Below, one piece after another: positions 3,132-52,054 of a stretch of 64,000 nucleotides of DNA. Made by a program: the position numbers and the translations under genes. Origin of the DNA: Promethearchaeota archaeon (lineage in GTDB: Archaea; Asgardarchaeota; Lokiarchaeia; Sigyniarchaeales; SOKP01); assembly GCA_048939995.1 (NCBI GenBank), contig JBHLOY010000001.1:192001-256000 (forward strand). The letters are read 5' to 3'. How positions within the stretch are numbered: position 1 is the first letter of the stretch; the number at the start of each line of letters is the position of its first letter. Under the pieces are notes generated by a model. It was not told the DNA's origin. It ran no database searches and saw nothing but the letters and a program-made list of their open reading frames with translations.

Positions 3132-3490
3132 TTAATGATACAAATTTTTAATTATATGAAAGAATTAACTCTACACTATTGAAATTTACTATTTGAAATT
3201 TCGTGCAACATTTTTTGGAAAAAAAGTATAATCCCCATAATACGGCAATTGACATTCCTTTGGGTATAAAAAATTATTCTCAACTCAATAGCAGCTTTTA
3301 ATCCCCTTCAATGGACTATTTGCTCATTATTACTTTCTTTTTAACATTTTACAAATGTTGTACTATGATTCATAATGAAAAATGTATGATAAAAAAAATT
3401 ACTAAATTAATAATATCTTTTCGTTTATATTGAGTTCTTTCTGTTTTTCTATGAGACAATTTTATTATAGATAGGAGGAGGAGCTTAATT

Positions 3491-3784
3491 ATTCCAACCA
3501 AAACCATTAGATTTAATGAGAAAGACGAAAAGATTTTATATGATAATTGGAATATAGAAATAGTCAGAGAGTTTAAAGCTTTCTTAAAGAAAAAGCTTTC
3601 TTTAGAACAGAAGTTAGAGTCCTATATTTTAAATTCAGATAATCCAAAAGAAACGAAACAACGACTTATAAAAGAAAAATTGAAATTGATCAAATTTATG
3701 ATGAGAAAGGGGGCATCTCAAGAAACTTTAGACAGATTAAGTAGGGAATATTTTCAGCTAAGAAATGTTCAAGATTCTTGTTAA
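3491..3784 (+). CDS. Unlisted 97-aa protein with possible ribbon-helix-helix N-terminus; ATT start
   Basis: Frame is open 3455-3784 (IPTKTIRFNEKDEKILYDNW...QDSC*). AGGAGGAGGAG at 3473-3483; no NTG start near the 5' end. Confidence 0.6.
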   Translation: MPTKTIRFNEKDEKILYDNWNIEIVREFKAFLKKKLSLEQKLESYILNSDNPKETKQRLIKEKLKLIKFMMRKGASQETLDRLSREYFQLRNVQDSC

Positions 3785-3943
3785 ATATTAAATCTATTTC
3801 TCTTTTTTTAAAAATTAAAAAAATACTAAATTTTACAATAACCCTTTTAATTATTTTTATAGTTTGTATTTATAGAGATTCTATTATATTATGTAAATAA
3901 TTTATTCTTTTTTATGTGAAGCTGACAAAATTAGAATACAAAA

Positions 3944-5377
3944 ATGAAAAAGTTAACGTATGATAAAGTCCCTCTAAAAATTAAGTTTTTTGGAGGATTT
4001 GGAGCGTTTGGGATTAATTTAACGACAGGATTATTTTTAACATGGACTCAAATCTTTTACATTAATATGATTTTAATTGATCCCTTGATGTGGGCGCTTG
4101 CTTGGATTATATATTTCATATGGAATGCGCTTAACGACCCTATTTTTGGTCATATTTCAGATAAAACCCGAACTAAATACGGACGGAGAATTCCATATTT
4201 AATGATATGCGGTCCCTTATTATCAATTAGTTTTATATGCATATATCTTGTACCAGCTTATAGTTCTTCTTGGATTAAATTTAGCTGGTTATTAATTTCC
4301 TTATTATTATATGATTCTTTTTTTACAATGGTCTCTTTATGTTTTAGTTCATTATTAGCAGAATTGTCGATAAATCCAGAGGAGAGAGCATTAATTAACA
4401 TCTTTTCAGGATTAGGAGCAGGAGTTGCTGTTGCGCTAACTTATGCTCTTCCTATTTTATTCATATTTTTTAATCCAATGCCACTTGTTGAGGAAATCTT
4501 CACGTTTCAAATTATAGCATTAATTTTAGCTATATCTGGAGCAATATTTCTATCCATTACGTCATTTGGTATTAAAGAACGTCCTGAACTACTACCAGAA
4601 AAAGAAGAAACCCTAGACTTATGGCATTCTATAAAAAATGTCTTAAAAAATAAGAGTTTCCAAACGTATGTGATTTTTAACTTCACAATGGCTTATGTTT
4701 TATTTTCTGTGAATTCGAACTTACCCTTTTACTTAGAATATGTGTTAAATCTTTCATTAGAAAACATTATCTCATCCACTCCTTTACTACTTTTTCTTAT
4801 TTTTACGGTAATAGGACTTCCGGTAGGATTAGCACTTACAAAAAGGAAAGGAAATAAACGAGCCCTTTTCTACCTTTCGATTCTAGGTTTAACAGGATTC
4901 ATTCTTCTTACTTTTGCAGATAATATATACCTTGTGAATATCTCATTTGTTATTATTGGATTTGGTTTCTCAGGTCAAAGTCTATTAGTTTTTACCTTAT
5001 TAGGTGACATTATTGATAAAGATGAATTAGAGACTGGTGTTCGCAGAGAAGGGGCGTATTTTGGAACGGATGCCTTGATTACAAGGCCAGCTCAGTCATT
5101 AGCTGCAGGAATTTCAGGTTTAATCTTTTTTCTTACAAATTTTCAACAAAGTCTAGCAGAGGGAGAAAGTCAACCCGAAAGTGCGATTATTGGCATAAAA
5201 TTGTTATTGGGAATTATTCCTGCAATTTTTATTATTTTAGGGTTAATCTCTCTCTGGTATTATCCTTTAGACCCTTTAACAAAAGATTACAAAGAAATCA
5301 AAAAGCAAGTACTAGTTTTACATGAAGAGAAATTACATAGATTAAAAGAAAGATTGGGAAAAAAATCAGAGAATTAA
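3944..5377 (+). CDS. MFS transporter, GPH (MelB-like) family
   Basis: 'WNALNDPIFGHISDKTRTKYGRRIPY' and 'DIIDKDELETGVRREGAYFG'. Confidence 0.92.
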   Translation: MKKLTYDKVPLKIKFFGGFGAFGINLTTGLFLTWTQIFYINMILIDPLMWALAWIIYFIWNALNDPIFGHISDKTRTKYGRRIPYLMICGPLLSISFICIYLVPAYSSSWIKFSWLLISLLLYDSFFTMVSLCFSSLLAELSINPEERALINIFSGLGAGVAVALTYALPILFIFFNPMPLVEEIFTFQIIALILAISGAIFLSITSFGIKERPELLPEKEETLDLWHSIKNVLKNKSFQTYVIFNFTMAYVLFSVNSNLPFYLEYVLNLSLENIISSTPLLLFLIFTVIGLPVGLALTKRKGNKRALFYLSILGLTGFILLTFADNIYLVNISFVIIGFGFSGQSLLVFTLLGDIIDKDELETGVRREGAYFGTDALITRPAQSLAAGISGLIFFLTNFQQSLAEGESQPESAIIGIKLLLGIIPAIFIILGLISLWYYPLDPLTKDYKEIKKQVLVLHEEKLHRLKERLGKKSEN

Positions 5378-5378
5378 T

Positions 5379-5445
5379 TTTTGACTTTTCTTATGTCCCT
5401 TTCTAATATAAACATAAATGATGCATTTTGGACAAAAAGTCAAAA
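5379..5445. terminator. Long inverted repeat between convergent genes (probable bidirectional terminator or RNA structure)
   Basis: TTTTGACTTTT(CTTA)TGTCC ... GGACAAAAAGTCAAAA. Confidence 0.5.
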
Positions 5446-50370: not shown

Positions 50371-50425
50371 TATCTAACAACTCATATATTGTAATAAAAA
50401 AATGAATTAATTGAATAAGAAAAAG

Positions 50426-50821
50426 TTATTTCTCTTCATTTTTAACTAGTACTTTATACTCATCAACAGACAGGAGATTACTTATTTCATCAGAATTAGA
50501 GTATTTTATTTTTACAATCCACCCGTCATTAAAAGGCGAAGTATTGAGGAGTTCTGGTCGATCAATTAGATTTTGATTTATTTCAAAAATTTTTCCAGAT
50601 AACGGCATAATTAATTCTCCAACTGCTTTGACAGATTCAATCTCCCCGATTGTAGCTTCTTTCTTAACATCGATTCCTATTTCAGGTAATTCAATAAAAA
50701 CTACATCTCCTAATTGATGTTGAGCATAATCAGTTATTCCAACTATAGCAATATTGCTTTCTAATTTGACCCATTCATGAGTTTTAGTGTACTTTAAATA
50801 AGCAGGGAATTTATAATCCAT
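50426..50821 (-). CDS. gcvH: Glycine cleavage H protein
   Basis: HEW, GITDYAQ..LGD, IESVKAV (lipoyl-Lys). Confidence 0.97.
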   Translation of the reverse strand: MDYKFPAYLKYTKTHEWVKLESNIAIVGITDYAQHQLGDVVFIELPEIGIDVKKEATIGEIESVKAVGELIMPLSGKIFEINQNLIDRPELLNTSPFNDGWIVKIKYSNSDEISNLLSVDEYKVLVKNEEK

Positions 50822-50840
50822 CCTTTTTCACGTCCAATTC

Positions 50841-51941
50841 TTATATATTTCGAAAAAATGGTATAGATATTATTTGTCCTTTCAATAATTTTCCACGTAT
50901 TTCAATCTCCAGTTTAGTTCCGACTTGGCTGAATTCAGTTTTCACCAATCCTAATCCAATAGTTTTATCTAGTGTCGGTGAAAAACCCCCTGAAGTCACA
51001 TATCCGATTTCTTCACTATTTTTAAAAATTTTATATCTTTCTCTAATTATACCTCTTTCTAATAAGTTTAAACCTACTAAAATTCTATCAGTACCCTGAG
51101 ATTTTTGCATTTCTAGAATATCTTTACCAATATATGTTATCCCAGGCTTGGGTTTGGCAAGCCAATTAAGTCCAGCCTCTATGGGTGTTATTGAATCACT
51201 TATTTCATGCCCATAAAGTGAATAACATGCTTCTAATCTTAGAGAATCTCTTGCACCTAAACCCACTGGCCTAGCTCCAGTATTTAATAAAATATTCCAT
51301 ATCTTATCGGCAAACTCATTCTCAAATGATATTTCTACACCTTTTTCTCCAGTATATCCTGTTCTAGCAAGAAAAATTGGGATATTCTTTAGATTGCAAT
51401 GAGCAAAGTAGAATCGATTTATTTTTGATAAATCCACATCAATTAAGGGTTGTAGTAGTTTGTCTGAATTTGGTCCCTGAAATGCTAATCGACAACGTTT
51501 ATTAGATAAATTGCTAACTTTAACATCTTGATTTCCTATATGATTGCGTAACCACTCAAAATCTTTTTCTATGTTCCCAGCGTTTACAATCATTCTAAAT
51601 TTTTCTGGTGTTTCCTCATAATACACTAAATCATCTACAACTGTTCCATTTTCATAACACATTATTGAATATTGCCCTTTAGATGGCTCTAGTAAGCTTA
51701 AGTCATTAATCATTATATATTGGAGAAATGGAATGACATCCTTGCCTTCCAGTAAAAATTCACCCATATGTGAGATATCAAATACACCCGCATTTGAGCG
51801 GACGGCTTTATGCTCCTTTATAATACTCTCAAACTGTACAGGCATATAGAAACCCGCAAATTCAACCAATCTTGCACCTAATTTAACATGGGTATCATAA
51901 AGTGGTGTCTTCTTAATGTTTTCAGTCTTTTCCTTCGTTAG
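50841..51941 (-). CDS. gcvT: Glycine cleavage T protein; N-terminus extends upstream of 51869 (exact start 51917, 51938 or 51941)
   Basis: Upstream in-frame KKTPLYDTHVKLGAR; FDISHMG, RTGYTGE, GLGARDSLRLEA. Confidence 0.93.
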   Translation of the reverse strand, partial: LTKEKTENIKKTPLYDTHVKLGARLVEFAGFYMPVQFESIIKEHKAVRSNAGVFDISHMGEFLLEGKDVIPFLQYIMINDLSLLEPSKGQYSIMCYENGTVVDDLVYYEETPEKFRMIVNAGNIEKDFEWLRNHIGNQDVKVSNLSNKRCRLAFQGPNSDKLLQPLIDVDLSKINRFYFAHCNLKNIPIFLARTGYTGEKGVEISFENEFADKIWNILLNTGARPVGLGARDSLRLEACYSLYGHEISDSITPIEAGLNWLAKPKPGITYIGKDILEMQKSQGTDRILVGLNLLERGIIRERYKIFKNSEEIGYVTSGGFSPTLDKTIGLGLVKTEFSQVGTKLEIEIRGKLLKGQIISIPFFRNI

Positions 51942-52054
51942 ATCTACACCTTTTTGTATATTGAATTTAATATTGTGAGTATAAAGTAGTAAGAATTATT
52001 TAAATTTTCAGCCTTAACTAAATTCGTGAAAAAAATTGTGAGAATAGGATTTAA

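Follow-up and report, generated by a model that had tools for sequence, protein, structure and literature searches.

Candidate ATA, ATT and ATC start codons behind Shine-Dalgarno motifs in a genome of the Lokiarchaeia

Genes and 5' regions in the window

The DNA studied here, referred to as the window, is a stretch of 64,000 nucleotides (nt) from the genome of a Promethearchaeota archaeon belonging to the Lokiarchaeia (GCA_048939995.1, contig JBHLOY010000001.1; G000:C11:192001-256000). The genome is metagenome-assembled and comprises 3.75 Mb in 38 contigs with a GC content of 30%. The subject of this work is the translation start of six genes of the window, coding for an XPD/Rad3 helicase, a HemK2/Mtq2-like methyltransferase, GcvT, a CAAX protease, Rpo4 and a small protein, for which codons other than ATG, GTG and TTG (together termed NTG) come into consideration, mainly ATA, ATT and ATC (termed ATH, or AUH in RNA). 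Gene identities were assigned by Pfam (XPD-type helicase, small methyltransferase, GCV_T, Rce1-like and Rpb4); the small open reading frame (ORF) gave no Pfam match.

Frames of the window genes running from stop to stop were compared with frames opening at NTG and then translated. The 5' regions were aligned with those of orthologous genes in 18 congeners and in 12 genomes belonging to other families, the searchable relatives being 41 congeners and several sister genera and families. All six genes possess a Shine-Dalgarno (SD)-like motif 5-9 nt upstream of the candidate codon, in line with the first-pass annotation, which had noted a GGTG or GAGG motif shortly before each of them. For XPD, HemK2, GcvT, the CAAX protease and the small ORF, no in-frame NTG allows the conserved N-terminus to be encoded, and an in-frame stop delimits the frame; the case of rpo4 is ambiguous owing to a GTG in the reading frame. 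Thus, the earlier statement that four genes (XPD, HemK2, GcvT and the ORF at 3491) cannot be fully encoded from ATG, GTG or TTG was corroborated, as conserved N-terminal sequence precedes the first NTG in each of them. Alignment of the orthologous codons across congeners revealed that the non-NTG starts are common to relatives. In families outside the genus, these genes start with ATG or TTG. Contigs of three other studies are identical to the window across the starts at 3491, 7816 and 9824.

The XPD gene (29880-31850, minus strand) would start with ATA 31850-31848, preceded by GGTG at 31860-31857 and by an in-frame TAA (31853-31851) within the spacer. The 59 codons ahead of the first NTG include those of the Walker A motif APNGTGKT. 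At the position of this ATA codon, ATA behind GGTG-N6 was found in seven species (the window genome and six others), and seven congeners have ATG there, with an SD that is absent or weak. By orthologue alignment, the ATA at 31850 proposed earlier is therefore the counterpart of the ATG codon of congeners. The spacer TAA is present in the window genome and in its relative G010, which excludes the GTG of the SD as a start codon in these two. In four congeners (G011, G004, G008 and G002; loci L003, L006, L009 and L012) XPD is N-terminally extended, with frames of 679-737 codons that do not start at the position common to the others. The window genome and G010 furthermore contain a mini-ORF of seven codons (ATG ACG GAT ATC ACG GTG TTT TAA; 31851-31874, minus strand) abutting the ATA. 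Termination-reinitiation from this mini-ORF was considered and rejected, since the mini-ORF is not kept in the relative G018.

For the HemK2 gene (9153-9824, minus strand), the candidate start is ATC 9824-9822, located 7 nt behind a GGTG motif (9835-9832) that overlaps an in-frame TGA (9833-9831). Twenty-six codons including VYSPSDDSYL precede the first NTG, a TTG at 9752 that cuts into this motif. The arrangement GGTG-N6/7-ATT/ATA/ATC exists in nearly the entire genus, and congeners have ATT or ATA at the position of the ATC. The SD's GTG shares the reading frame in most species. Spacer indels of 1 nt have shifted it out of frame in the window genome, G010 and G011 without affecting the frame of the ATH codon, indicating that the spacer evolves as non-coding DNA. 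Of the two ATC codons suggested previously, 9824 fits; the one at 9830 is only 1 nt away from the SD.

The gene of the CAAX (Rce1-like) protease (7163-7816, minus strand) has its candidate ATA at 7816-7814, 7 nt downstream of GAGGT (7828-7824), and 21 codons precede the first NTG. In 16 congeners, the ATG of M[AS]I[NQ]LG is found at the position of this ATA, which agrees with the earlier notion that ATA 7816 is the better fit; G010 likewise has ATA, with a stop just upstream. The start region is identical in contigs from two other studies. Similarly, the rpo4 (RpoF/Rpb4) gene (11507-11872, minus strand) possesses ATA 11872-11870 where all 18 congeners have the ATG of MSGRK. It is located 6 nt behind the GGTG (11882-11879) of the motif AAGGTGG. 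In G010 and G018 the order is GGTG, an in-frame TAA and an ATG at 6 nt, identifying the motif as an SD there. G013 has GGTA instead and likewise the TAA.

The small ORF (3491-3784, plus strand; approximately 97 amino acids, function unassigned) is preceded by the SD AGGAGGAGG at 3473-3481, which is kept as AGGAGGAGGTG or AGGTGGAGGTG in G010, G018 and G013. Its frame (3455-3784) has 109 codons, and no NTG yields more than 28 amino acids. Two ATT codons, 3488 and 3491, follow the SD, of which the second (3491-3493) is the orthologous codon. Its counterpart is ATT in G010 and ATA in both G018 and G013, in keeping with the ATT start noted earlier for the 3491 ORF; in G018 a TAG directly precedes the ATA. 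The ORF occurs only in the window genome and these three relatives, and all four share GGAGG(TG)-N7-ATT/ATA. An independent metagenome contig is identical in the start region.

The gcvT gene (50841-51941, minus strand) differs in its candidate codons, which are CTA 51941-51939 and ACG 51938-51936 behind GGTG at 51950-51947, and further downstream ATT 51917-51915. The first NTG, a TTG, is preceded by 42 codons including KKTPLYD. In most congeners the CTA position is taken by the TTG or GTG of GGTG-N5-TTG/GTG, and CTA followed by ACG is found in the window genome and G010. In G010, G018 and G013 a TAA is located two codons ahead of the GGT, so that a start further upstream is excluded. The alignment thus suggests that the gcvT start is a non-NTG codon, either CTA or ACG. 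The earlier choice among ATT, ACG and CTA holds insofar as the TTG or GTG of the relatives has been lost; neither ACG nor CTA has genome-wide support. Approximately 60 nt ahead of the SD (51951-52010, minus strand; TTTAAATAATTCT..CTTTATACTCACAATATTAAA) are nearly invariant throughout the genus and probably represent the promoter and the 5' untranslated region (UTR).

Codons behind Shine-Dalgarno motifs across the genome

In the window genome, confident ATG starts are preceded by the SD consensus GGAGGTGAT; its GTGA ends 6 nt before the start, and GGTG is located 6-8 nt before the ATG. The codon at each spacing behind GGTG was recorded throughout the genome, provided that it opened a frame of at least 100 codons, lay at most 12 codons from an in-frame stop and had no second NTG at a distance of up to four codons. 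At spacings of 6, 7 and 8 nt, 40, 49 and 30 NTG codons were counted along with 29, 35 and 15 ATH codons and 15, 12 and 23 other codons. ATH therefore makes up 79 of the 129 non-NTG sites (61%) at 6-8 nt, compared to 12% at control spacings (odds ratio 11, p = 2e-27), and its spacing peak is that of the canonical starts. ATT was most frequent (42), followed by ATA (28) and ATC (9). Composition-matched codons (AAT, TAT, TTA and AAA) were depleted at the SD register, as was AAG. Neither ACG nor CTA nor AAG was enriched as a start class in this census. GTA was weakly enriched (4 vs 2, p = 0.03), and the signal of CTG was weak. After an ATH codon, the next NTG follows at a median distance of 24 codons, which matches the NTG density of coding sequence (3.7%) if the starts are genuine.

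The GGTG-led NTG starts comprised 68 ATG, 41 TTG and 10 GTG codons, so that the previously noted frequent use of TTG was evident. When four SD cores were pooled, 389 NTG and 143 ATH codons were obtained, equivalent to an excess of about 96 ATH genes. Roughly, AUH starts would account for 3-8% of all genes and for one third of the GGTG-led genes in the genus. A generally low stringency of start-codon selection, as put forward in the first-pass annotation, was not seen, because the enrichment is limited to third-position variants of ATG (ATT > ATA > ATC) with a hint of GTA.

To make the comparison independent of the SD, genes of the window genome were aligned with 271 kb of the congeners G008 and G017 without requiring an SD. 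Ten of 119 genes (8%, confidence interval 4-15%) have at least ten conserved codons before the first NTG. Of the six cases beyond the window, four have ATA or ATC where the partner has ATG, GTG or ATA, one has GTA opposite ATG, and the sixth is unclear; the first five lie behind an SD. At G000:C13:243013-244317 (plus strand), a gene carries 95 NTG-free codons and a GTA behind GGTGAGGAAGA, where G017 has ATG.

Two further genes of the window were compared with their orthologues. A P-loop GTPase gene (52793-53827, plus strand) has orthologues in G008 and G017 with GGTGA-N6-ATA and a P-loop located before their first NTG; G010 apparently uses TTG. For the ORF at 35452-36729 (minus strand), the listed GTG 36651 lies inside an AAGGTG SD (region 36637-36651), and the orthologues favour TTG 36639-36637, a position occupied by ATG in G017 and by ATA in G008; an ATT (36642) directly precedes this TTG. 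A codon-usage measure of the coding potential of the leads was discarded as too weak (0.19 bit per codon).

Distribution in related lineages

The ratio of ATH to NTG codons behind GGTG was 79:119 in the window genome and 7:6 in the congeners G008 and G017 combined. In G026, a genome of a sister family (GC 0.31, 0.8 Mb), it was 10:34, which is above the background of this genome (p = 5e-4). By contrast, G068 from another Asgard family (GC 0.31, 0.8 Mb), which makes strong use of SD motifs, gave 6:64 and did not differ from its own background. The difference between the window genome and G068 is significant (odds ratio 7.1, p = 4e-7). ATH starts are thus commoner than in a comparably AT-rich relative, and AT-richness alone does not explain them. 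The trait is graded across related lineages, increasing from the outgroup via the sister family to the genus.

Initiation factors and initiator tRNA

Inspection of the initiation machinery did not substantiate the idea that a relaxed aIF1, aIF2 or initiator tRNA underlies these starts, as no change was demonstrable; the genes of aIF1 and aIF2-beta fall into an unassembled block, and no initiator tRNA was found. The window genome has two copies of aIF1A. A SUI1 domain (PF01253), i.e. aIF1, was not detected in the window genome, G010, G013 and G018, also with a threshold of E <= 10 and with tblastn, compared to 88 of 88 high-quality Asgard genomes outside the family in which SUI1 was found. aIF2-beta is absent too, from the window-genome assembly only. 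In the reference G017 (G017:C70:168000-202352; L307, L308), aIF2-beta, the large subunit of replication protein A (RPA) and aIF1 lie in a syntenic block spanning at least 35 kb, for which the window genome contains no orthologues, though this genome is rated 98% complete. The contigs of three close relatives break before the aIF1 position, and public contigs encoding an RPA with 83-86% identity to that of G013 show the order RPA-PfkB-ORF-SUI1-Arf. For these reasons, loss of aIF1 as a cause was rejected. A synteny test for aIF1 by its neighbours, the PfkB kinase and the Ras-like GTPase, matched only paralogues.

In relatives, aIF1 retains its conserved motifs. The SUI1-profile scores drop from the outgroup (71-86 bits) via the sister family (59-70 bits) to the genus (46-66 bits). 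Among the 20 (ARAGORN) or 21 (Rfam) tRNAs of the assembly, none has initiator features. Many of the 20-21 detectable tRNA genes contain long introns, and one tRNA(CAU) (G000:C28:237433-237651) has an unusual T-loop (CTCATAT). The 3' end of the 16S rRNA is not in the assembly.

The start codon of aIF1 in relatives

In all congeners that possess the gene, aIF1 itself lacks a suitable NTG. Its 5' region, e.g. in G017 (L149:1416-1770), reads taa taa AGG TTG TGA AAA AAG AGT ATT AAA GA..., and after the in-frame TGA no NTG follows until near the C-terminal end of the frame. The arrangement of GTGA, exactly 9 nt and ATT or ATC was found in the genera g1, g10, g11, g13, g14 and g15, i.e. in at least six genera of one family, with stops 1-3 codons upstream. 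Often two or three stops lie directly upstream of the start (g10, g11, g13, g14 and g15). As a result of these stops, ATT is the only near-cognate codon left for the aIF1 start. In g5, which belongs to the sister family, the gene starts with ATA. ATA or CTG is found in a few other Asgard families, and most outgroups use ATG, GTG or TTG; g12 and g16 are ambiguous. Further aIF1 loci of relatives are L234-L252 and L319-L322 (13280-13621). Public gene calls for a single aIF1 gene amount to 73, 108 and 113 residues, an example of the systematic mis-annotation that had been anticipated. Among the open-access papers searched, no report of a non-AUG start of aIF1 in archaea was found.

With 30S complexes of S. 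solfataricus, AUU was accepted without aIF1 and rejected in its presence (PMC4705826). IF3, by its AUU start, and eIF1, by a poor context, regulate their own synthesis via weak starts (PMC4705826; see also PMC6237735 and PMC3326321). The conserved ATT of aIF1 speaks for weak starts that are regulated by aIF1 and not for a loss of fidelity. The parallel to IF3 and eIF1 suggests that aIF1 may limit AUH initiation here and that AUH genes may respond to the aIF1 level. A more far-reaching and tentative proposal, which we regard as possible though doubtful, is that the AUH genes form a large 'stringency regulon' in Lokiarchaeia-type Asgard archaea. aIF1 would then limit initiation at AUA, AUU and AUC, set its own level via the sub-optimally spaced GTGA-N9-AUU and tune about 100 or more genes, among them genes of DNA repair, of RNA polymerase and of translation-related functions.

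Interpretation and rival explanations

The results argue for genes of this lineage being translated from AUA, AUU and AUC starts guided by SD motifs, and for such starts being widespread rather than a rare exception; we estimate the probability of this explanation at roughly 85%. The affected genes are intact and partly essential. A motif of the GGAGGUGAU type in the mRNA would pair with the 3' end of the 16S rRNA and position the 30S subunit such that the codon 6-8 nt downstream comes to lie in the P site. The ordinary initiator Met-tRNA (anticodon CAU) would presumably be accepted despite the third-position mismatch, a strong and well-spaced SD offsetting the weak codon. Output would probably be lower than that of AUG, and aIF1, whose own gene has an AUU start in relatives, may set the efficiency with which the AUH class is used. 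Of the original proposal of SD-guided initiation at low stringency, the SD-guided non-NTG starts at normal spacing, common to relatives, are retained; the general laxity and the altered factor are not.

Several points weigh against this explanation. The start assignments are derived from DNA sequence and its comparison; among the sequencing runs listed as containing this DNA, none of RNA or ribosome profiling was found. Neither the 16S 3' end nor the initiator tRNA is part of the assembly, so that SD pairing and the decoding tRNA are likewise deduced. The short apparent N-terminal extensions (4-7 residues by BLAST) proved to be false in nine of nine window genes checked, which have conserved UTRs and canonical ATG or TTG starts, so that the value of 8% is based on ten genes only. 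The length of the NTG-free lead did not discriminate as a genome-wide statistic and was abandoned, as the same tail exists in G026. The outgroup control consists of one genome, and the sister family was sampled over 0.8 Mb only. gcvT has no ATH at the SD register, and its candidates CTA and ACG are not supported as a start class genome-wide. In rpo4, finally, the GTG 11881-11879 of the window is in frame three codons upstream of the ATA with no stop after it. The ATA proposed for this gene is thus favoured by its orthology to ATG in 18 congeners and by the motif acting as an SD in relatives, with the in-frame GTG as a competing start.

The last point leads to an alternative in which the true start is the GTG inside GGTG, or another upstream NTG, and the ATH is merely the third or fourth sense codon. 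Whenever GGTG lies 6 nt before ATH, this GTG is in frame, which applies to rpo4 in the window and to XPD in five congeners. In XPD of the window genome and G010, however, a TAA separates GTG and ATA, and the relatives' rpo4 genes carry a TAA after that position and yet keep the ATG, both with GTG (G010, G018) and with GTA (G013). Moreover, the GTG of HemK2 is out of frame in three species, as is the GTG at the 50 ATH sites with spacings of 7-8 nt genome-wide, and there is little chance that this alternative is the general explanation. A slightly smaller chance is given to the opposite possibility, i.e. that synthesis begins at the first downstream ATG, GTG or TTG and yields N-terminally shortened proteins, the upstream open frame being untranslated. 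Gene callers restricted to NTG indeed produce such shortened models, and the nine window genes with short extensions do start at NTG. On the other hand, a shortened XPD would be deprived of Walker A, a shortened HemK2 of the VYxPxxDS motif and a shortened GcvT of the TPLYD strand. At the protein level, the upstream codons are 45-75% identical, and they are free of stops or frameshifts across the genus, and the ATH enrichment is specific for codon and spacing. The latter also speaks against assembly or sequencing errors, by which ATG would have been read as ATA or homopolymer indels would have created non-NTG starts. Although the genome is metagenome-assembled and has a large unassembled block, errors would not prefer ATT, ATA and ATC exactly 6-8 nt behind an SD, and the identical codons recur in independently assembled species and in contigs of other studies. 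This source of the starts is therefore practically negligible. A-to-I editing of ATA to AUG was dismissed by reasoning alone, as it cannot account for the ATT and ATC codons, which together form the majority.

A different kind of rival accepts the AUH starts and assumes that a lineage-specific change of the machinery has made them no longer weak, either by a modified or second initiator tRNA (e.g. with C34 modified as in mitochondrial tRNA-Met) or by an altered aIF1 or aIF2. The stepwise climb of ATH frequency from the outgroup via the sister family to the genus, the SUI1-profile scores falling in the same order and the restriction of the enrichment to third-position variants, including the hint of GTA, would be compatible with such a change. 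We nevertheless consider it rather improbable, since no such tRNA or factor change was found (in an assembly in which the initiator tRNA is not detectable), aIF1 keeps its conserved motifs in relatives, and the ATH genes have stronger-than-average SDs, as expected for a weak codon.

If AUH starts are used as proposed, gene callers that accept only NTG truncate or miss an estimated 3-8% of the proteins. XPD loses its Walker A motif, GTPases lose their P-loop, and aIF1 is affected as well. Such truncation distorts the inventories of protein families and eukaryotic signature proteins used for reasoning about eukaryogenesis. The lineage would moreover be a natural example of an archaeal aIF1/aIF2 machinery that regularly initiates at AUH with the help of the SD, and the gradient between lineages could be mined for the responsible change. 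To judge from the conserved AUU of aIF1, archaea may also possess a feedback control of start-codon stringency such as that known for IF3 and eIF1.

Comparison with known systems

A review describes SD sequences as rare in Lokiarchaea (PMC12993045). Among the open-access papers searched, none on AUH starts in Asgard archaea was found. The starts described here resemble bacterial AUU, AUA and AUC starts behind an SD (E. coli infC and pcnB; the alternative starts of translation table 11) in that the codon is a third-position near-cognate of AUG, the SD spacing is normal and the codon is conserved across species. In both cases the codon is presumably read by the initiator tRNA, and callers restricted to NTG truncate the proteins. 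In E. coli, such starts occur in a handful of genes only. By contrast, about 100 or more genes, approximately one third of the GGTG-led ones, are concerned here, in an archaeon with eukaryote-type aIF1 and aIF2 instead of IF3.

Mitochondria and Mollicutes are AT-rich systems that use AUA, AUU and AUC as starts, in mitochondria without SD guidance, or with a reduced translation machinery and a changed code in such systems. AT-richness and frequent AUH initiation are shared with the genus studied here, whereas the latter has the standard code and a central role of the SD, and an equally AT-rich Asgard outgroup lacks the trait. The autoregulation of infC and eIF1 finds its parallel in relatives of the window genome, in which a non-canonical codon opens the very gene whose product discriminates against non-AUG starts. 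Unlike IF3, aIF1 is a SUI1-fold protein, to which IF3 is unrelated. Feedback is only suggested here; the aIF1 gene is located outside the window and the assembly. The AUH starts of this genus are thus a quantitatively unusual and lineage-graded form of a known type of start, with a new link to aIF1.

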